This document shows positions 25,058-34,539 of a DNA stretch of 64,000 nt, piece after piece (position 1 is the stretch's first letter; every line of letters begins with the position of its first letter). The DNA is from Capsulimonadaceae bacterium (GTDB taxonomy: Bacteria > Armatimonadota > Armatimonadia > Armatimonadales > Capsulimonadaceae). The DNA lies in the NCBI GenBank assembly GCA_965215505.1, contig OZ244065.1:1792001-1856000 (forward strand). Direction: 5' to 3'. Both the position numbers and the translations under genes were made by a program. Below the pieces are notes generated by a model, which was not told where the DNA came from, did no database searches, and worked only from the letters and a program-made list of their open reading frames with translations.

Positions 25058-27838
25058 TTGCCGCGCCCTCCTTCGCGCCGGGCTGTTTTTTACTTCGCGC
25101 GCCCTTCCAAGATAGAAGGAAAAGAGGGCGCGGCAAGCGGTGCCCCCACGTCTTTGCATAGCCTAAAACATTACCCCACACGCCCCGCGCGCTGGCTCCG
25201 GCGCACCCGCCACTTCCTGTCCCAGACGCGGGCCGACCTGGGCCTGGCCGGCGGGACGCCGCCGGTCTGGCTGCGGGACAACCCGTTCCTCGCCAAAGCG
25301 GGCCGTACCGAAACCCGGCGGCTCGGGCTGCTGCTGCGGCTGGGCCTGACCGTCCTGCTCCTGGCCGGGCTGCTGCTGGGCGGCCTGGGGCTGGAGCGGA
25401 CTTACGGGCAGGCGGTGACGCGCATCGTGGGCTTCCTGTTCGGCATGACCTTCCCCGCCGCCCTGTTCGCCGTCCTCACGTTCATTCACGCCACCGTCGT
25501 GGCGGGCGTCCGCAACGCGCAGGCGACCTCGCTGGCCGATGAGGCGCGGCGGGGGACGCTGCCGGACCTGCTGCTGACGCCCCTGCGCCGGGCCGAGATG
25601 CTGCTGGCGATGGGGGCCGCGCCCGCCCGGACGGCCCTGCTGGTCGCCCTCGCCGGGCTGCCGGTCTACGTCCTGCTCGGCGAGTTCGGGGCATTGACGG
25701 CCGGCGACATTTTCTTCCTTTACCTGCTGTTCGCGCTCCTCAGCTACGCCCCGCCGCTCTACGCCCTCCCCGCGCTCGCGGGCGGGGCGATGACGCCCGA
25801 GACGGCTTTGGGCAAGTTCGGCCTGTCCCAGTCACGCCGCCCGGTCCGCACAGCCGGGTTCGGCAGCACGGGCGGATACATCATCTTCTCCATCTTCTCG
25901 GCCGGTCCCCTGCTCGGCATGATGCGGGGCGGCTGGCTGGGGCACGGGCTGGCGGCCCTGCACCTGCACCTCAACCCGTCCTTCTCGCTCTTCCTGTTCC
26001 TCGGCTGGCCGGTCTACGCCGTCCAGGTCCTGAGCGCCCGGCTGGACTTCTTCCACGGCACCGTCTCCCCGCTGGTCTACGCGCTGCCCCTGCTGGCGGC
26101 CCGCTGGGTCGCCTCCGCGCTCCAGTCGGCGGCGGCACTGTCGGCGGGCGACGCCGACGACATGGCCCGGCTGCCGCTGGCCTCGCGGGCGCGCACCGTC
26201 GCCCGGTGGACGGCGCGGGCGGCGGGCCTGTGCGCCCTGGCCATCCTCTGGCGCGGGTGCGTGGAAGGGGGGGACACGGCGGCCCTGGCGGGCGGGCCGT
26301 TCGGCGTGCCCGGCTGGGACGCGGCGGGGCTGCTGCTGCTGCTGGGCGGGATCGCCCTGCCGGCCGTCTGCGCCCGCGCCCTGGAAACGCCGCCCGGCCG
26401 CAAGGACTCCGCGCTGCGCCCCGCCCTCCTGGTCCTGCGCCGGGCGTTCCGGCGGTGCGCCCGGCCCCTGGCCCTTGCGGGCGGGATGTTTGGGCTGGCC
26501 TGCCTGCTGGGCGGCCTATCGCCGTTCGCCATGCCGGTCTACTCGGTCGCGGGCGAGCTGGCCCTGACGGCCGCGGCCACGGTCTTATGGGGTGTGGGCG
26601 TCCGCCGGGTCCTGCCGTCGGGCGGGCGGGTCGCCCGGAACGTCCTGCTGTATTTGCTGCCCGCCGCCGCCCTGGCCGCGCCGGTTCCGGGCGCATCCTG
26701 GCTGTCCGCCCTCAGCCCCGCCACGGCCTGGCTGCGGTTGTTCCCGGATGCGGCCGGGATGCTGTCCCGCTTCCCGCTGTACCACATCGCCGCGCCGCCG
26801 AGCTTCGCGGTGTGCCTGGCTGGGTCGGCGCTGGTGGGGGCGGTGGGGATGGCCGGGAGGCTTGTGCCGGCTGCCGCGCCGCAGGGCCGGGCACCTTTGC
26901 TGACCCGGCCGTCTTCCCCGGTCCGAGCCGCCTCCGAGGCGAGCGCCCCCCGCCACGCCGCCCGGACCGCCTCCCTGCTGGCCTGGGTGACGGCGCGCAC
27001 CGACAACCCCCTTTTCACCCACGAGGTCCGGACGCGCACCCGGTCGGGCCGGTGGCTGGACTGGCTCGTGGGCGGGCAGCTGCTCCTGCTGGCCGCCATG
27101 GTCGCCGGCCTGGCCTACCCCGACTTCCTGGAGGCGATGGCCGCCACCTCACCGCTGCACTTCTTCGGCAGCGGCGTCGTGAACCCCGGCGCGACGACCG
27201 GGCAGTACGGGATCGCGCGGGTCTGCCTGAACCTCGCCGCCCTGCTGCTGGCGGGGCAGTGCTACGCCCTGGGCTTCCGGGGTCAGATCATCGGCGAGGG
27301 GCTGATCGCGCGGGACCGGCAGCGGGGCATCTGGGGGTTCCTGCTGCTGACGCCCTTGACGGCGCCCCAGATCTTCTGGGGGAAGGTGTGGGGGCAGAGT
27401 TCCCCCGCCGGGGCGCTCTGGGCCGGGTGCGGTCTGGGCGGACTGCTGCTGTACGCCCTGACCATCCCCGCCGTCGGCCCGGTGCCGGCGCTGTGCGCCT
27501 GGCTGGTGGGTCAGGCCTTCGTCGCCTCCCTGTTCGTGCTGGGGCTTGCCTTCGGGGCGGCGCTATCCTCGTACCCAGTCTTTTTCAAGAACCTGCGCGG
27601 GATGGCCGCGCTGCTCTTCACCGCCGCCGTCGGGCTGGCGGTCTGGGCGCAGTTCGAGTGGCTGCCCTTCAGCCTGCCCGCCTGGGGGTCGGCGTCTGGC
27701 TGGAGCCTGCTGTCGGCCCGGCTGCTGCTGGGGATCGGGTACGCGGCGCTCCTGTCTGTCCCGCTGCTGGTGTTCGCGGAGCGGCGGGTGGCGGAGGTCC
27801 GGCGGAAGGACGTGGCGGCGGGGGATGGGGCGGGGTGA
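25058..27838 (+). CDS. Large polytopic membrane protein with two ABC-2 permease-like modules (start uncertain, possibly TTG 25154)
   Basis: Duplicated motifs DNP...RT..R and (E/D)..RG...LLLTPL...; many TM segments. Confidence 0.7.
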   Translation: MPRPPSRRAVFYFARPSKIEGKEGAASGAPTSLHSLKHYPTRPARWLRRTRHFLSQTRADLGLAGGTPPVWLRDNPFLAKAGRTETRRLGLLLRLGLTVLLLAGLLLGGLGLERTYGQAVTRIVGFLFGMTFPAALFAVLTFIHATVVAGVRNAQATSLADEARRGTLPDLLLTPLRRAEMLLAMGAAPARTALLVALAGLPVYVLLGEFGALTAGDIFFLYLLFALLSYAPPLYALPALAGGAMTPETALGKFGLSQSRRPVRTAGFGSTGGYIIFSIFSAGPLLGMMRGGWLGHGLAALHLHLNPSFSLFLFLGWPVYAVQVLSARLDFFHGTVSPLVYALPLLAARWVASALQSAAALSAGDADDMARLPLASRARTVARWTARAAGLCALAILWRGCVEGGDTAALAGGPFGVPGWDAAGLLLLLGGIALPAVCARALETPPGRKDSALRPALLVLRRAFRRCARPLALAGGMFGLACLLGGLSPFAMPVYSVAGELALTAAATVLWGVGVRRVLPSGGRVARNVLLYLLPAAALAAPVPGASWLSALSPATAWLRLFPDAAGMLSRFPLYHIAAPPSFAVCLAGSALVGAVGMAGRLVPAAAPQGRAPLLTRPSSPVRAASEASAPRHAARTASLLAWVTARTDNPLFTHEVRTRTRSGRWLDWLVGGQLLLLAAMVAGLAYPDFLEAMAATSPLHFFGSGVVNPGATTGQYGIARVCLNLAALLLAGQCYALGFRGQIIGEGLIARDRQRGIWGFLLLTPLTAPQIFWGKVWGQSSPAGALWAGCGLGGLLLYALTIPAVGPVPALCAWLVGQAFVASLFVLGLAFGAALSSYPVFFKNLRGMAALLFTAAVGLAVWAQFEWLPFSLPAWGSASGWSLLSARLLLGIGYAALLSVPLLVFAERRVAEVRRKDVAAGDGAG

Positions 27839-27839
27839 A

Positions 27840-28045
27840 CCTCTCCCCGGCGCGAGCGCCGACCCTCCCCTCGGAGGGAAGGGGGTGTGGTGGGGGCCAG
27901 GGCACCACTTGATAGGGGCTTGCCGTTGTCGGGCAGTCTTGTCGAAAAACCGCCCGAACGCAAGGGGCCATCAAGAAACGCGTCTCACCCCCCACCACAC
28001 CCCCTTCCCTCCGAGGGGAGGGTCGGCGCTCGCGCCGGGGAGAGG
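27840..28045. repeat. Perfect 57-bp inverted repeat doublet (CCTCTCCCC...GGGGAGAGG family)
   Basis: 27840-27896 is the exact reverse complement of 27989-28045. Confidence 0.92.
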
Positions 28046-28485
28046 ATCGGAAGTTCGGAGCGCGGCGGGGCGGCGATTAACTCCCGAGCCTTGGCCAGTA
28101 TCCGCCGCCGCACGGCGTTCAGGTCGGCCCGCAACGCGTCGTTGGGGAACCGCAGGACGGACAGCCCGTAAGCCTCCATCACCCGGTCCCGCTCCGCATC
28201 GTACTCCACCTGGTCATCGTGGATAGGCCCGTCCAACTCAACCACGAGCCGGGCGGCGTCGCAGAAGAAGTCCGCGATGAAGCCCTCGATGATCTGCTGC
28301 CGCCGGAAGTGCAGCCCGCCGAGACGGTTGGCCCGTACATGCCTCCAGAGGAGCCGTTCGCTGGGCGTCATCCGCCGCCGCAGTCGGATCGCCAGCGACC
28401 GCTTCAGGGCACTGTGGCCTGCGGTCACGATGAAGTGCCGGGAAAGTCGTTCGTGTACTGGCCTGTCCGTCGGTTTCTCGTCCAT
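27985..28485 (-). CDS. DUF559 (Vsr-like) endonuclease domain protein
   Basis: LRRRMTPSERLLW, FRRQ, FIADF, LVVELDGPIH, DAERD, LRFPN. Confidence 0.92.
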   Translation of the reverse strand: MDEKPTDRPVHERLSRHFIVTAGHSALKRSLAIRLRRRMTPSERLLWRHVRANRLGGLHFRRQQIIEGFIADFFCDAARLVVELDGPIHDDQVEYDAERDRVMEAYGLSVLRFPNDALRADLNAVRRRILAKARELIAAPPRSELPILSPARAPTLPSEGRGCGGG

Positions 28486-28502: not shown

Positions 28503-28712
28503 CCTCTCCCCCGTCGCTACGCGCCGTCCCCTCCCCTCAAAGGGAAGGGTATGTGGTGGAAAGTTTGTTTGTTCCATCGAGTGCCTCGCCCTAACCGGGG
28601 GCAGTGTCCAAAAGACCTTTCGGTCACCGCAAACTCCCAGGAAGAGGTGCCCTGGCCCCTATTTACCCACCCTCCCCTTTGAGGGGGGGTCGGCGCTCAC
28701 GCCGGGGAGAGG
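28503..28712. repeat. Degenerate inverted repeat doublet of the same family, upstream of DUF559 (lone copy also at 14844-14892)
   Basis: cctctccccc...cctcccctcaaagggaaggg..gtggtgg at 28503 and the inverted copy ending ggggagagg at 28712. Confidence 0.8.
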
Positions 28713-28728
28713 ATCGGACACGAGAGGT

Positions 28729-29760
28729 TCAGTGCCCCAGCAGTGAGGACGTCCCGCCCTCGGGGGAGATGACGAACGGCTTCGGGACGCCGTAGCGCCC
28801 GCACAGGCTGCCGAGTTCGCCGTCCGCCGCCGAGCCGTCGGTGTTGACCTGGCCCTGCACCTGGGCGACGGCGCTCAGGTCGGGCAGGCCGTTCGAGTCG
28901 TGGTTGAGCAGGGCCACCTGCATCTTGGAAATGATCGTCGTGTAGTCGCCCAGGAACGTCAGATAGCGCCCGGCCAGCGGCGCGCAGGCGGGAGGGGGGG
29001 GCGTGGCCCGGAAGTCGCGGACCAGGCCCTGCCACTTCAGGGCGTACTGGGTGTAGCCCTGGCTGATGCGCTGGGTGTTCTGCTTGGCCGCCGCCTCCTT
29101 GGCTGCCTGATCCTTCGCCTCGTTCTCGCCCTCCGGGTCGTTGGAGATGTCCGGCATCCCCCCGCCCCCCATCCCGCCCATGCTTTCCGCAAGCCCCAGC
29201 ATCGCCGTAGCGCCCGCCGTGTCGTTGTTCATGGCGACCCGCCGCTGCTCGATCTGCTGCAAAAAGTTAAGATAGGCGGCGACATCGGGCGGCAGGGCCG
29301 GGCCGGGCGCGGTGGGGGCGTTTGTCAGGCCGGGACTCCGGACGGCCGGCGCGGTCGGAGCGTTGGTCAAGGCGGGCGCGGCGTTAGGCGGGGCGGCAGG
29401 GGCATTGGTGAGCGCGGGGGCGGCGGTCGGCGGGCTGACCGGGGCATTCGTCAAGGCGGGTGCCGGCACGGGCGGCGGTGCGGCAGAAGCAAGCATGTTA
29501 GACTGCTGATGCAGCCGGGCGGCGAGTAGGGCGACGCCGAGGGCCAGGACGAGCAGGGCGGCGAGCATACCTGGGACCAGCAGCCTGCGCGAGCCGGAGG
29601 CGGCGGCCTCGACCCCGCTGGCTGCGCCGAGCGGCGGGCGCGGGACGCGGGCCGGCAGGACGGTCGGCGCGGACCCGTCCAGGCGGGCGGCGCAGTTGGG
29701 GCAGAATCGGGCGGTCGAGGGGATCTCCTGGCCACATTCGGGGCAAAATCGGGCTGCCAT
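28729..29760 (-). CDS. Zinc-ribbon domain membrane protein with PALTNAP repeats
   Basis: GGAGG RBS, FCPECG...FCPNC, TM segment, 4x (A/G)LTNAP, helical C-terminus. Confidence 0.8.
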   Translation of the reverse strand: MAARFCPECGQEIPSTARFCPNCAARLDGSAPTVLPARVPRPPLGAASGVEAAASGSRRLLVPGMLAALLVLALGVALLAARLHQQSNMLASAAPPPVPAPALTNAPVSPPTAAPALTNAPAAPPNAAPALTNAPTAPAVRSPGLTNAPTAPGPALPPDVAAYLNFLQQIEQRRVAMNNDTAGATAMLGLAESMGGMGGGGMPDISNDPEGENEAKDQAAKEAAAKQNTQRISQGYTQYALKWQGLVRDFRATPPPPACAPLAGRYLTFLGDYTTIISKMQVALLNHDSNGLPDLSAVAQVQGQVNTDGSAADGELGSLCGRYGVPKPFVISPEGGTSSLLGH

Positions 29761-29865
29761 GTTCACCTCCCAAGGCGTACATCGGGGCTTACAAATGCTG
29801 TTGTCACTATACCGTGCTTTCTCCCCTTCCGTCAAGCGGCGCGCAGGAGATTCTTTCCGCGACCG

Positions 29866-29908
29866 TAGACGAAAAGAGCTATAAACGGGTATAATAGAAC
29901 AAGTGTTC
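29866..29908 (+). promoter_or_regulatory. Sigma70 promoter with Gram-positive-type LexA (SOS/Cheo) box
   Basis: TAGACG 29866-29871, 18-bp spacer, TATAAT 29890-29895, GAAC-AAGT-GTTC 29897-29908. Confidence 0.8.
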
Positions 29909-29973
29909 GTCAGACGTTCTGCCGGCCTTCAGACGACGTTTCTCCCGCTTCGGACCAACTAGGAACCCCGCCG

Positions 29974-30498
29974 ATGACTACCCGAGTGACCAACCGAGAC
30001 ATGGCCGCCACGCTGTTCAATATCGCCACCCTGCTGCGCGACCGCTCGGACAGCCCGTACCGGATTCGCGCTTACGAGCGCGGTGCGCGCGCCCTCCTGG
30101 CCCGCCGCGACCAGATTGCCGACGCTTTGCGCGAGGCCGACAAGACCCTGCCGCACCGCAAGGGGGTTTTGGGTGAGCGCATCCAGCGCCGCCTGAAGGA
30201 GCTGGCCGAGACGGGCCGCGTGGAGACGCTGGACTCCCTCTGCGCCGACCTGCCCCGGCATATCGGGGCCTTGATGGAGGCCCCCGGCGTCGGCCCGCGC
30301 CTGGCCGAGCGGCTGCACGAGAGCCTGGGGGTGGAGACGGCGGACGACTTGGCCCGCGCCGCCCGCTCGGGCCGCGCCCGCCAGGTGTGGGGCGTCGGCC
30401 CCAAGCGCGAGGCGCAGTGGTCTCAGCCGTCCCTGTTCGGGGAAGGGGAGCTGTTCCCGGACGTCGCCGAAGAGACGAAGCGGCGGATGGCGGCCTAA
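29974..30498 (+). CDS. Stand-alone PolX N-terminal helix-hairpin-helix protein (no polymerase palm or PHP domain)
   Basis: TNRDMA..L..IA.LL....PYRIRAYERGA, ELAETG, PGVGPR.A..L...LGVET.DDL..A, GVGPK.E. Confidence 0.85.
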   Translation: MTTRVTNRDMAATLFNIATLLRDRSDSPYRIRAYERGARALLARRDQIADALREADKTLPHRKGVLGERIQRRLKELAETGRVETLDSLCADLPRHIGALMEAPGVGPRLAERLHESLGVETADDLARAARSGRARQVWGVGPKREAQWSQPSLFGEGELFPDVAEETKRRMAA

Positions 30499-30502
30499 CC
30501 TC

Positions 30503-31819
30503 ATGCAAGAAGAAATCGAACTCGACCTCTTCGCCGCCGCCCTGGATACCGGAGCGGCGGACGACGCCGACGGCCCGGACGGCGACGAGCCGCCGGATTG
30601 GCTGGAGGCGGTCGCCGCTGATTATGCCCTGCCGTTCACACTCCCTACCCTGCCGCTCGCCCCGCGCCCGTACCAGAAGGATGCCCTGACGGCATGGGGT
30701 CGGGCATTGGGGCGGGGCGTGGTGGTCTTGCCGACGGGGGCGGGAAAAACGGTCGTCGCCCTGATGACCATGGAGGCGATGCAGGTGACGACTCTCGTTG
30801 TCGTCCCGACGATTGACCTCATGCACCAGTGGCACGACGGGATCAAAGAGAAGTTCGGGCTGGACGAGACGCAGGTCGGCATGGTCGGCGGCGGGTTCAA
30901 GAACGCCCGGCCCGTGACGGTCATCACTTACGACTCGGCGGCCATGCCTAAGCGGGACCTGTCCGACTACGGGCTGCTGATCTTCGATGAAGCCCACCAC
31001 CTGCCCTCGGCCTCCTACCGGACCATCGCGACGCGCGCCGATGCGCCATTCCGTTTGGGGCTGTCGGCGACATTAGAGCGGTCCGACGGGCGGCATGACG
31101 ACATCGCGCGGCTTGTCGGCCCGACGGTCTTTGAACGGCAGCCGCAGACGCTGGCCCGCGACAAGCACATCGCGGACTACAAAGTCGAGCGCGTGTCCAT
31201 TGACCTCACCGACGACGAGCAGGCGCGCTACGACCAGCTCACGTCCGAGTTCTCCTGGTACATGGCTTCCAACCGGACCAAGCTGATGATGACCGGGGCG
31301 GCGAACCTGTTTGAAGCCCTGATCCGCAGCGCGGGTTATGACCCCGCCGCCCGTCAGGCCCTGCGATCCCACCGGGAAGCGCGGATGCTGGCGATGAACG
31401 CCGAGCGCAAGATCCAGGCCGTCGAGGCGCTGCTGACGCGGCACCGGGATGACAAAGTGATCGTGTTCTCCGAGTGGAACGTCATCGTCAATGACCTGTC
31501 CCGCCGCCTCTGCCTGCCCGCGATCACCTACCGCACCCACGCCGACGAGCGGCGCGATATCTTAGACAAGTTCCGGGCGCAGAAGTATTCCAAGCTGGTC
31601 ACGGGCCGCGTCTTGAACGAAGGCGTGGACGTGCCCGACGCCAATGTCGCCATCGTCGTCTCCGGGTCGTCCACGACGCGCGAGTATATCCAGCGGCTGG
31701 GGAGGGTCCTGCGGCCGAAGCCGGGCCACGCGCACCTGTATGAGCTGGTGTCGCGCGGAACGAGCGAGGTCAAGACGGCCCGCAAGCGCAAGCCGGTGGA
31801 GAAGGCCGAGACAACTTAG
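30503..31819 (+). CDS. XPB/Rad25-like superfamily 2 DNA helicase
   Basis: RPYQ, LPTGAGKT, DEAHH, LGLSAT.ER.DG, LNEGVDVPDA, EYIQRLGRVLR. Confidence 0.92.
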   Translation: MQEEIELDLFAAALDTGAADDADGPDGDEPPDWLEAVAADYALPFTLPTLPLAPRPYQKDALTAWGRALGRGVVVLPTGAGKTVVALMTMEAMQVTTLVVVPTIDLMHQWHDGIKEKFGLDETQVGMVGGGFKNARPVTVITYDSAAMPKRDLSDYGLLIFDEAHHLPSASYRTIATRADAPFRLGLSATLERSDGRHDDIARLVGPTVFERQPQTLARDKHIADYKVERVSIDLTDDEQARYDQLTSEFSWYMASNRTKLMMTGAANLFEALIRSAGYDPAARQALRSHREARMLAMNAERKIQAVEALLTRHRDDKVIVFSEWNVIVNDLSRRLCLPAITYRTHADERRDILDKFRAQKYSKLVTGRVLNEGVDVPDANVAIVVSGSSTTREYIQRLGRVLRPKPGHAHLYELVSRGTSEVKTARKRKPVEKAETT

Positions 31820-31887
31820 GGGCGCGATTTATCGTGCCCTTTCTTCGGACGAAAGCATTCAGAGGGCGCGGCAAGCAGCGCCCCTAC
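31817..31887. repeat. GTAG-tagged REP doublet; family copies also near 6597, 9824, 25045/25124, 32839, 33547, 40327, 53766/53838
   Basis: (G)TAGGGGCG...CGCCC hairpins, often in inverted pairs. Confidence 0.8.
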
Positions 31888-31934
31888 AAGATGGCCCGCG
31901 TTCGACCACAAGTATCCCAGGAGCATCACACACC

Positions 31935-33428
31935 ATGGCCTTCCGCCAAGAGGATTTCAAGAAAACCAGCCGCAAAGGGACCGGGGACGCGCCCGCGTCC
32001 GTCTACCCGCACCAACTCAAGGACAAGAAGACGGTCGCGCGGCTGGAGATCGCCATCCGCACCTTCGACGGCGCGGTGGGAAAACGGCGGAAAGACATGG
32101 ACGCGCAGGCGATGACCGACTTCTTCGGCGACCCGCGCCTAGCGCGCGGCATCGTCGCCTGCTTGGGCCAGTTCTACCGCTACGAGACGCTGGACTTCAC
32201 CCAGGCCGTCGGGCGAGAGGCGGCGGGCCGCCTGCGGGCGGCGGGTCTGAACCGGCCCGTGGAGGTTCGCGCGGACACTTACGCCTGGGTTAATGAACAC
32301 GCGGGCGGCTTCCTCACCGAAGCGGGCCGGGCGGAGGCATATGAGCAGCTAGGCGCGCGCTTCTGTCTGTCCGCCCATCAGTGGGACACCTTGCTGCACG
32401 GGGACGCCGAGGACAATCAGGTCCTCGCCCGGCTGGGTGCCGTTCCTACGCCCGGCGACATCATCGCCCTGTACAACTTTCACTCGCTGGACACCGTCCT
32501 GCGCCGGGCCACGGCGGTCGCGCTGCATGGCCTGGCCCTGCCCGCCGGGGAGGCGGGCGACGTGCGCGCGCTGGCGAAATCGCTCGGGGCGCGCGCCGTC
32601 GTGTCCGGCGACGGCGGGACGGTGACGCTCGCCGAGGCCCCCTCCGAGGACGCCTCGGGCGCGGCTTCGCTGTTCCCCCGGCGGGCGGGCCGCCTGGCCC
32701 GGCTGGTCCTGCACCTGACCGCTGCCTACGCCACGCGGGCGACGACCGGCTGGGTGGACGCCAAGATCGGCGCGCGCTGCTTCCGTTTAGCTCTAGGGAC
32801 GGACGCCCTGCGCGCCCTGGGGATGCGTCCCGAACCCCGTAGGGGCGAACCTTGTGTTCGCCCTTCCCCCGCCTTCAAGCGGCGGTTTGAGGCGGGGCTT
32901 GCGCTCCACAAGGACCTCTTGAAGCGGCGGGCGAAGGGGGAGGCGAACGGCTGGCGCATCAAGCGGCTGCCTGACGCCTTGGTGACGGCGACGGGCGTCC
33001 TGCTGCCGGATTTCCTGCTGACGCGGGGCGGCAAGGCAGCCTGCCTGCTGCTCGGGGCGGACGCGCCCGGTACAGTGGCCGAGGAGACGGCGACCGTACT
33101 GACGTTCCCGCTGGGCCGCAAGCCTCTGGACGCCTGCGACGTGCTGGCGCGGGTGGAGGCGGCGACGAACAGCCTGTTCGCTCTGGCCCCCGCTGCCCCC
33201 CCCGCCGTCCCCGCCGACGTGCGCGCGCTCTGTGACCGTGCCGCCCGCGAGGGGCTGGTGCGCGCCGCCGACGCCCGCCGGACCCTGCACCTCCTGGACG
33301 AGTCCCCGCTGATCGCCTGGGTGCGTCAGTGCGAGGACCCGCGCGTCCGGTATGTGCCGGGCGTCGGCCTGTGTTCGCGCGAGATGGTGGCAGCAATTCA
33401 GGGGGATGGGCAATTGGCACTGGCGTGA
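31935..33428 (+). CDS. DUF790 / Bax1-like protein
   Basis: DPRLARG, LHGDAEDNQVL, IIALYN...DTVL..A, GW.I.R.P..L.....V.LPDF; located directly downstream of the XPB-like helicase. Confidence 0.75.
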   Translation: MAFRQEDFKKTSRKGTGDAPASVYPHQLKDKKTVARLEIAIRTFDGAVGKRRKDMDAQAMTDFFGDPRLARGIVACLGQFYRYETLDFTQAVGREAAGRLRAAGLNRPVEVRADTYAWVNEHAGGFLTEAGRAEAYEQLGARFCLSAHQWDTLLHGDAEDNQVLARLGAVPTPGDIIALYNFHSLDTVLRRATAVALHGLALPAGEAGDVRALAKSLGARAVVSGDGGTVTLAEAPSEDASGAASLFPRRAGRLARLVLHLTAAYATRATTGWVDAKIGARCFRLALGTDALRALGMRPEPRRGEPCVRPSPAFKRRFEAGLALHKDLLKRRAKGEANGWRIKRLPDALVTATGVLLPDFLLTRGGKAACLLLGADAPGTVAEETATVLTFPLGRKPLDACDVLARVEAATNSLFALAPAAPPAVPADVRALCDRAAREGLVRAADARRTLHLLDESPLIAWVRQCEDPRVRYVPGVGLCSREMVAAIQGDGQLALA

Positions 33429-33628
33429 AGAACGCCCCGGCCCTGAAGGGCCGGGCGACTGTAGATGTGAGAGTCGCTCCGCGACTGAGGATTGGGAACT
33501 TAGGGACGCGATCCGTCGCGCCCTCTCAGGGCCGGGCTCCCTTCCTGTAGGGGCGCTGCTTGCTGCGCCCTCCTCCCTCATTTCCCCAAGTTCCCTGATC
33601 CCTTCCCTGGCATGATCTATGCACTAAT

Positions 33629-34539
33629 AGACCTCTTGCGTAAGTCGGGTATCCTGCGTGTATGTTTTACGCCGATGCCCGTTTGTTGAAGCCGCCCGTG
33701 TTCAAGCGACTGACCGGCGTCCCGCCGGACACGTTCCAAGCCATGAGGGCGGCCCTCGCTGAGCATCTGCCCACCGGCGGACGCCGGGCCAGGCACTGCC
33801 GGGCCAGGCACTGCCGGGCCAGGCACTGCCGGGCCAGGCACTGCCGGGAAGACCGGCTCCTGATGACCTTGATGTACTGGCGCGAGTACCGCACTTACGC
33901 CCATATCGCCCACACCTACGGCCTGAGCGAGTCCGCCGTCTGCCGCACCGTCCACGCCGTCGAGAACGCCCTGCTCCGCTCCGGCGCGTTCACCCTGCCC
34001 GGCAGGAAAGCCCTGACCCGGAGCGACATCCAGTTCGAGGTCGTCGTCGTGGATGCCACCGAGTGCCCGGTGGAGCGTCCGAAAAAAAGCAGAGACGCTC
34101 CTACAGCGGCAAGAAGGAGCGGCACACTCAGAAAGCGCAGGTCGTCGCGGACCCGAGGACCGGGCGCATCCTAGCCACGGCGTTCAGCGCGGGCAGGCTG
34201 CACGACTTCAAGCTGTTCCCGCGCAGCCGCGTGGCGCTCCACCGGAAGACCGCGTGCCTGGCAGACAGCGGCTATCTGGGGCTGAAGAAGCGCCACGCCA
34301 ACAGCCGCCTGCCGGCCAAGAAGAGCAAACTGCACCCGCTGACGCGGGAGCAGAAGCGAGACAACCGGCAACTCTCGCGGGAACGGTTCGTGATCGAGCA
34401 TATCATCCGCAGCGTCAAGATCTTCCGCATCCTGGCGGAGCGCTACCGTAACCGGCGCAAGCGCTTTGGCCTGCGCTTCAACCTGATTGCCGCCCTCTAC
34501 AACCTGGGGCGGCCGACCTGAGACTTACGCAAGAGGTCT
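33629..34539 (+). mobile_element. IS5-family insertion sequence (ISL2/IS702-like), ~911 bp
   Basis: Perfect 18-bp terminal inverted repeats agacctcttgcgtaagtc / gacttacgcaagaggtct, flanked by AAT on both sides. Confidence 0.9.
33662..34521 (+). CDS. IS5-family transposase split by a -1 frameshift at an A7 run (34082-34088)
   Basis: ORF1 HTH (FKRLTGV, LLMTLMYWREY) and VVDATE..ERPKK; ORF2 YSGKK.RHT.K.Q, HDF, ADSGY.G, R..IEH. Confidence 0.88.

Follow-up and report, generated by a model that had tools for sequence, protein, structure and literature searches.

The window analysed here is a stretch of 64,000 nucleotides from a Capsulimonadaceae bacterium (assembly GCA_965215505.1, contig OZ244065.1, positions 1,792,001 to 1,856,000 of the forward strand). 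At its positions 29974-33428, on the + strand, lies an operon of three co-directional genes encoding a helix-hairpin-helix (HhH) protein, an XPB-type helicase and a DUF790 nuclease. We are concerned with short peptides at the ends of these three proteins, which an earlier note on this DNA had taken for motifs binding the beta sliding clamp, DnaN.

The first gene (29974-30498, + strand, 174 aa) matches the Pfam families HHH_8 (36.2 bits) and HHH_5 (36.5 bits), both over cut-off. The profile of its family aligns with PolX of T. thermophilus (structure 3au2) over residues 1-146 (E 2.3e-26), which makes the HhH protein similar to the 8-kDa and fingers region of that polymerase. The palm and thumb, which characterise a family-X polymerase, are missing, as is the PHP domain, and hence we concluded that the HhH protein is no polymerase. 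Its residues 1-150 are well folded in the AlphaFold2 model.

The second gene (30503-31819, + strand, 438 aa) starts 4 nt past the stop codon of the first one and encodes an XPB-family SF2 helicase with matches to Pfam ResIII and ERCC3_RAD25_C (78.6 bits). Its profile aligns with residues 89-469 of A. fulgidus XPB (2fwr, E 7.7e-129), and similarly with S. tokodaii XPBII, so that the three domains of the XPB core (HD1, ThM and HD2) are all accounted for. The NCBIfam XPB model gives 251.7 bits, under its cut-off of 610, the best stretch being positions 183-402 of a profile of 548. We did not find the XPB damage-recognition domain (DRD) in the helicase: the match to 2fwr begins only at residue 89, past this domain. 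This means that the helicase is an XPB core without damage-recognition domain.

The third gene (31935-33428, + strand, 497 aa) follows after a spacer of 115 nt and encodes a Bax1-like PD-(D/E)XK nuclease (Pfam DUF790, 60.9 bits for a cut-off of 28.8); the NCBIfam Bax1 model matches it weakly, far under its cut-off. DUF790 corresponds to the Bax1 nuclease family (PMC7293015; here and below, citations refer to the part of each source that was available). The gene starts at 31935, inside a longer open frame: the protein of the window itself (P0220) has 497 aa, and the MAFR start is invariant in the alignment of the homologues. A scan of 29500-34000 against Rfam gave zero matches.

We compared this operon with related loci from a scan in which each species was represented by one genome. 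Of the 546 helicase relatives obtained in this way, we retained the best 80 loci, which together with the window make up the 81 loci searched with profile hidden Markov models. The DUF790 gene lies downstream of the helicase in most of them. Thirty-one, namely 8 from Armatimonadota and 23 others, mostly from Chloroflexota, have an HhH gene upstream of the helicase; we call them HhH-type loci. The cultured relative Capsulimonas corticalis also has the helicase and an HhH protein with a QLSLF peptide.

Peptides at the ends of the three proteins

Clamp-binding motifs follow the consensus QL[S/D]LF or QxxLF or, in a variant of six residues, Q-phi-x-L-x-L, and their positions 1, 4 and 5 are the most important ones (PMC12309361; bioRxiv 10.64898/2026.05.27.728225). 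The consensus used in the earlier note agrees with these sources. Its three peptides, checked on the translations, lie exactly where it had placed them: QPSLF at 30424-30438 in the HhH protein, ELDLF at 30518-30532 in the helicase and QLALA at 33411-33425 in the DUF790 protein. It had rightly called each of them a partial match, as there is a proline at position 2 of the first, a glutamate at position 1 of the second and an alanine at position 5 of the third. It had also placed them in likely disordered ends, which the AlphaFold2 models bear out for the HhH tail (residues 151-174, block-mean pLDDT, the confidence score of the model, of about 50-57) and for the N-terminal tail of the helicase (residues 1-27, pLDDT below 50).

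The peptide QPSLF (CAG CCG TCC CTG TTC, + strand, residues 151-155) stands directly after the last helix of the HhH protein; it fits QxxLF and keeps positions 1, 4 and 5. Among the 98 HhH homologues listed, 85 have Q..LF or QL.LPL in their tail: the peptide reads QLSLF in 69, QPSLF in 11, QL[SC]LPL in 2 and QMSLF, QISLF and QINLF in one each. The other 13 have none of these forms; two of them read KLSLF or RLSLF, four are members of a clade in which the motif has been lost, and the remainder consists of fragments or of distant proteins. In the alignment of 85 rows, the columns of Q151, S153, L154 and F155 are conserved to at least 90% while the surrounding tail is variable. An acidic residue follows QLSLF in the sequence, and many homologues end 1-3 residues past the motif. 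The exact clamp consensus is thus found in most orthologues, and the HhH protein is the only one of the three subunits for which recruitment to DnaN is well supported by sequence. A second small motif, ELFP (30448-30459, + strand), follows the first one in the HhH tail; among the 98 homologues, the corresponding pattern [EKV][LM]F[PA] is found at this place only in 11 close relatives.

The HhH protein of the window ends with basic residues followed by two alanines (RRMAA, 30481-30495, + strand). This Ala-Ala end is shared by 43 of the 98 homologues and by 40 of the 48 which have at least 7 residues past the motif, typically in the form R-[RL]-M-A-A; among the HhH-type loci, it is present in 19 of the 31. 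It is also found on the DUF790 proteins of the loci L011-L054. As only 3.3% of the proteins of the genome end in this way, Ala-Ala is far commoner on the HhH and DUF790 proteins than in the proteome at large. Two alanines at the C-terminus are reminiscent of the ssrA/ClpX signal. These ends may be an ssrA/ClpX-like degron of an SOS protein; the SOS protein RecN is reported to be under ClpXP control (PMC10165496).

In the helicase, ELDLF (GAA CTC GAC CTC TTC, + strand, residues 6-10) opens the longer peptide ELDLFAAALD (30518-30547, + strand), a short motif conserved in the homologue alignment and located in the disordered acidic N-terminal tail. Only its LDLF corresponds to the clamp consensus, at positions 2-5. 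Among the 48 closest homologues (at least 67% identity), the N-terminal region of 46 contains xxx[LI]F-x-A: the variant is ELDLF in 25, DLDLF in 6, QLDIF in 2, and others, such as TNLF and DDLF, occur as well. At position 1, 31 of the 48 have an acidic residue (E or D) and 2 have Q. The residues A-A-x-L-[DE] which come after LF are conserved too, and this suggests an amphipathic helix. The motif persists in Chloroflexota as DLF-AA-L or ELL-AE-L, where LF is sometimes replaced by LL, LW or LD; over the HhH-type loci it is found in 27 of the 31 (21 with LF or IF, 6 with LL or IL), for instance as DDLFAAL, EELFAEL or EELLASL. Judging from these alignments, the helicase peptide is a genuine conserved short motif, which may serve either as a second clamp motif or for docking on another partner. 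We give the clamp rather less than an even chance of being its target, the other candidate being a partner within the complex. A complex prediction, designed so that swapping DnaN would show which protein the helicase peptide favours, took helicase residues 1-52 as the partner of DnaN (alignment of 30 rows) and of HhH residues 1-149; it gave a score of 0.01 for a mark of 0.32, was run without controls and speaks neither for nor against binding.

The case of the DUF790 protein is different. Its last five residues, QLALA (33411-33425, + strand), are not convincing as a clamp motif, since position 5 is neither F, L nor W and the peptide is not conserved among 120 homologues. There is no C-terminal motif in 96 of these. 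A QL[SA]LA end is limited to 8 cluster representatives from the window's own clade, a form QTLPL or QILPL occurs in 4, and a true QxxLF in 7 proteins of Armatimonadota (QLSLF twice, QLTLF, QMSLF and QQTLF three times). A large clade stops directly at ...TTIRGE. In the window, QLALA most likely represents a tail that has decayed or has no function, and this third motif is, as far as the alignments tell, no more than a lineage-specific tail. The proposal that all three peptides are clamp motifs is thus supported in part only: well for the HhH protein, whose orthologues have the consensus, and not for the DUF790 protein; the helicase peptide is conserved and matches the consensus at positions 2-5.

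Some relatives nevertheless have good motifs on all three subunits. When cluster representatives are paired by the length of their contigs, contig 4970 gives QLSLF, ELDLF and QQTLF for the HhH protein, the helicase and the DUF790 protein, and contig 132985 gives QLSLF, ELGLF and QQTLF, this pairing being heuristic and no proof of linkage. The three genes lie side by side in locus L007, and their peptides there are QLSLF, ELDLF and QMSLF. Clamp-type peptides are also found in Ktedonobacteraceae-type loci, which have no HhH gene and an XPB of the DRD type. In all eight complete DUF790 tails inspected there (L057, L058, L060, L063, L065, L068, L073 and L074), a basic low-complexity linker is followed by a clamp-type motif: Q-x-D-L-W in six, QNNLW in L058 and TPSLF in L074. 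Five of these tails end with QEDLWG, QQDLWG or QQDLWA, while in L063 the motif QPDLW lies two residues further from the end. The ending Q-x-D-L-W-G resembles the clamp motif of ImuB, which was defined experimentally as 352-QLPLWG-357 (PMC10421592).

A profile search for DUF790 in a library clustered at 50% identity gave 343 representatives at E of at most 0.001, and we looked at the 85 of at least 430 aa among the best 150. Thirty of the 85 end with Ala-Ala and none of these thirty has QxxL[FWL] in its last 30 residues. This pattern is present in 7 of the 55 others; over 500 shuffling trials, the average number was 0.69 and the highest 4. These comparisons show that clamp-type peptides recur at differing termini of this machine across lineages. 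The recurrence supports the general idea of the earlier note better than the DUF790 ending of the window does.

We also estimated how often such peptides arise by chance, in a rough proteome of the 6.18-Mb genome (4493 longest open reading frames filtered by GC content at third codon positions, in which N-termini may be over-extended so that N-terminal counts are approximate). The loose pattern [QE][LP][SDA]L[FA], which covers the three peptides, is found in 65 proteins and only 9 of its occurrences lie within 45 residues of an end. It is therefore unlikely by chance that three adjacent genes should all match, with the reservation that the loose pattern was defined post hoc; conservation is a stronger test than this count. 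The strict pattern QL[SD]LF occurs once in the entire rough proteome.

Two DNA-repair enzymes of the genome have similar peptides at their ends or close to them, and PSLF is not unique to the HhH protein: a Y-family polymerase (C1:762924-764123, + strand) has QWTPSLFGED near its C-terminus and a protein of the uracil-DNA glycosylase family (C1:923097-923813, - strand) starts with MAQSSLFDS. A 273-aa protein with a metallo-beta-lactamase fold (C1:407821-408642, + strand) ends with QLSLF. We rejected a 1239-aa protein with TPSLF as a candidate DnaE: it is an R3H/SpoIIIAA-like ATPase and uninformative on clamp motifs. As for dnaN itself, the genome has a second, partial copy (C1:4721133-4721894, - strand), which is 97% identical to residues 145-399. 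Another dnaN-like fragment (C1:4682885-4683043, - strand) contains a TAG stop and has a GAACATTCGTTC box nearby at C1:4682740.

The LexA box and the surroundings of the operon

Upstream of the HhH gene lies a sigma-70-like promoter (29866-29895, + strand; 10 of 12 matches in the consensus scan), made of TAGACG, a spacer of 18 nt and TATAAT at 29890-29895. A perfect LexA box of the Cheo type, GAACAAGTGTTC (29897-29908, + strand), starts 1 nt past TATAAT. The consensus of the Cheo box is GAACn4GTTC, or CGAACRNRYGTTYC (PMC2248561).

The box is kept upstream of orthologous operons. Over the 430 nt which precede the HhH domain, 17 of the 31 HhH-type loci have an exact GAAC-N4-GTTC and 11 more a box with one mismatch, so that 28 of the 31 have a box with at most one mismatch, often in the form TAGAAC-N4-GTTCTA. 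As a background, the other parts of these loci, 239,510 nt in all, contain 2 boxes. Loci devoid of the HhH gene and with enough upstream sequence (45 loci) have a box in only 3 cases (L001, L036 and L038), and all three have a helicase of the tail type. The recA gene of the genome has CGAACGTCTGTTCG 197 nt upstream, and three LexA-like genes are present. With a palindrome abutting the promoter and boxes retained both at orthologous operons and at recA, the locus looks like a member of a LexA regulon, and the box fits a role of the operon in DNA damage.

The HhH gene goes together with another feature of the helicase. An acidic tail precedes the helicase core in all 31 HhH-type loci (acid fraction 0.21-0.38), while the HhH-less loci of Ktedonobacteraceae and of two archaeal contigs have another, more basic N-terminal region (acid fraction at most 0.19). 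In Competibacteraceae, the helicase frames open with a different conserved sequence, for which the acid-fraction measure returned nothing. In view of this co-occurrence, the separate HhH protein and the acidic tail look like a replacement of the DRD.

Two Chloroflexaceae loci, L036 and L038, have kept both an acidic-tail helicase (MRQRELDELLAEL...) and the LexA box; a divergent TetR-like gene lies upstream and there is no HhH gene there. Searching for this gene gave only a long PolX-like frame in the genome of L036 and no match in that of L038, both of which are metagenome-assembled and possibly incomplete.

The spacer between the helicase and DUF790 genes contains a 33-nt element (31862-31894, + strand) resembling repetitive extragenic palindromic (REP) sequences, and an inverted copy, 91% complementary to it, lies downstream of DUF790 (33540-33572, - strand). 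The palindrome has a core GGGCGC...GCGCCC; this 12-mer occurs 17 times in the genome when 0.7 occurrences are expected. The element accounts for the 115-nt spacer, and the two frames overlap in the relative L006. Just downstream of the operon, an insertion sequence (33662-34521) encodes HTH_Tnp_4 and DDE_Tnp_1 domains in two overlapping frames, the first of which contains four copies of a 15-nt tandem repeat, GCCGGGCCAGGCACT (33783-33857). On the other side, a 60-nt inverted repeat, 98% complementary (27837-27896 and 27989-28048), lies at the 3' end of a minus-strand gene for a DUF559 (Vsr-like) endonuclease, and a related 36-nt copy is found at 28683-28718.

A proposed clamp-tethered repair machine and its rivals

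We lean, without great assurance, towards the reading that the operon encodes a LexA-controlled repair machine made of an HhH protein, a DRD-less XPB and a Bax1-like nuclease, and that the HhH tail, at least, tethers this machine to the clamp. The substrate, the assembly of the three proteins into a complex and the order of the events in such a machine would be as follows. On DNA damage, LexA would leave the box abutting the -10 hexamer and the three proteins would be produced together. The HhH subunit would recognise a discontinuity in the DNA, and its flexible C-terminal peptide Q[L/P]SLF would grip a beta sliding clamp that has stayed on the DNA. Next, the helicase would open the duplex and the nuclease would cut, as in archaeal XPB-Bax1. 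The N-terminal peptide [E/D]LDLF-AA-x-L of the helicase could act as a second tether, either in the second pocket of the clamp dimer, which seems to us a little less probable than the converse, or for instance on the HhH subunit.

Several observations weigh against this reading. The window itself has a proline at position 2 of the HhH motif, where an aliphatic residue is preferred, and one clade of Armatimonadota (P0154, P0172, P0173, P0198 and L006) does without the HhH motif. Among the 23 HhH tails from outside Armatimonadota, only 4 have the strict pattern Q..LF or Q[LIVM].L.[LIFM]; 3 more have QLxL[PV] and 16 fit no strict or partial pattern. In favour of the reading, 12 of the 23 have one of the looser patterns Qxx[LMF][FW] and Qxx[LM]x[LIV] (QESFW three times, QSTLW, QLALF, QTRLF, QLPLPI, QLTLAL, QERLDL, QEALAL, QERMEI and QSSLSV), a number which none of 1000 shuffles reached (mean 0.91), although the looser patterns were picked after inspection and the loci are kin. 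More generally, cluster representatives and loci are related to each other, and our counts overstate their independence. On the side of the helicase, the glutamine of position 1 is missing from the motif outside a few lineages, and the LF pair is absent in 10 of the 31 HhH-type loci. As to the control of the operon, two of the three LexA-like genes (C1:4951723, C1:1658128 and C1:483472) have no box within 350 nt upstream, and the third one (C1:483472) has only versions with one mismatch. Over the whole genome, GAAC-N4-GTTC occurs 67 times when 59 are expected, which is no enrichment; therefore only the position of the box and its conservation in orthologues are informative.

The terminal peptides could also be assembly peptides inside the complex instead of clamp ligands. 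The acidic N-terminal tail of the helicase, with its LF-AA-L helix, would for example dock on the basic HhH protein, and the HhH tail on the helicase or on the nuclease. The main argument for a docking of the helicase on the HhH protein is the distribution described above, that is an acidic tail in every HhH-type locus and a differing N-terminus in those HhH-less loci where it was measured. The conservation of A-A-x-L-[DE] after LF, which is unusual in clamp motifs, and the replacement of LF by LL, LW or LD in some Chloroflexota go in the same direction. However, QLSLF is the exact clamp consensus, the acidic residue after it is a feature shared with many clamp ligands, and the helicase tail and LexA box of L036 and L038 were kept without an HhH gene upstream (with the reservation made above on the completeness of these genomes). 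Moreover, the nuclease of archaeal XPB-Bax1 contacts the ThM and HD2 domains and not the N-terminus (PMC7293015). We consider this explanation rather unlikely.

A joint recruitment of the complex to DnaN by three functional clamp motifs, QPSLF, ELDLF and QLALA, as the earlier note would have it, has in its favour that every peptide is terminal and that the relatives described above (contigs 4970 and 132985, by heuristic pairing, and locus L007) have good motifs on three subunits. It is contradicted by the residue at position 5 of QLALA, one of the three key positions, by the 96 of 120 DUF790 homologues with no motif, among which a large clade ends with ...TTIRGE, and by the want of a glutamine at position 1 of the helicase motif; these make it very improbable. 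We rejected as more improbable still an anti-phage defence or mobile-element system, in which the motifs would serve a helicase and a PD-(D/E)XK nuclease: the helicase core does match the PADLOC models of PbeA (4.8e-56) and a Dnd-type restriction model, and an insertion sequence and a DUF559 endonuclease gene are neighbours, but the PADLOC matches are those of a generic SF2 core, the HhH and DUF790 proteins have none, the LexA box is conserved over two phyla and the nearest solved relatives, XPB and PolX, are repair proteins.

Coming back to the clamp-tethered repair machine, we would tentatively extend it, with more doubt than confidence, to an SOS-induced machine not described so far and spread over Armatimonadota and many Chloroflexota. 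In it, a free-standing PolX-like HhH protein would replace the DRD of XPB, the helicase and nuclease would be loaded at beta clamps via terminal peptides which shift between subunits (HhH tail, helicase N-terminal tail, DUF790 tail), and Ala-Ala ends would mark the proteins for later removal. If this is true, the machine would be a bacterial counterpart of the PCNA-coupled excision machinery. The LexA box, the canonical clamp peptide and the separate HhH subunit provide handles on the timing, the loading site and the replacement of the DRD, respectively. In the one library of literature that we searched, we found no description of the three-gene arrangement with its clamp peptides and LexA box.

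Comparison with known systems

XPB-Bax1 is an archaeal model for the TFIIH step of eukaryotic nucleotide excision repair. Bacteria have members of the XPB family as well, such as the XPB of Mycobacterium tuberculosis (PMC3353954).

The HhH protein shares with T. thermophilus PolX the HHH_8 and HHH_5 domains, over the 146 residues which can be aligned. It differs from it by its small size, by the loss of the palm, thumb and PHP domains, and by the presence of an additional C-terminal tail with QxSLF and an Ala-Ala end. The peptide of the HhH orthologues, QLSLF, is the consensus of the clamp motifs of bacterial replication and repair proteins, which likewise lie in terminal, flexible segments, whereas the variants of the window depart from this consensus in each of the three proteins, at position 2 (HhH), 1 (helicase) and 5 (DUF790).

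Another close system is the archaeal XPB-Bax1 of A. fulgidus and S. tokodaii (2fwr, 5tnu, 6p4f and 6p66), where an XPB-type SF2 core is likewise found beside the gene of a DUF790/Bax1-type nuclease, and we presume the same unwind-and-cut mechanism for the operon (PMC7293015). The operon of the window differs from it in that a disordered acidic tail stands in the place of the DRD, which is absent, and in that it has a third, separate HhH subunit, peptides of the bacterial clamp type and a LexA box.

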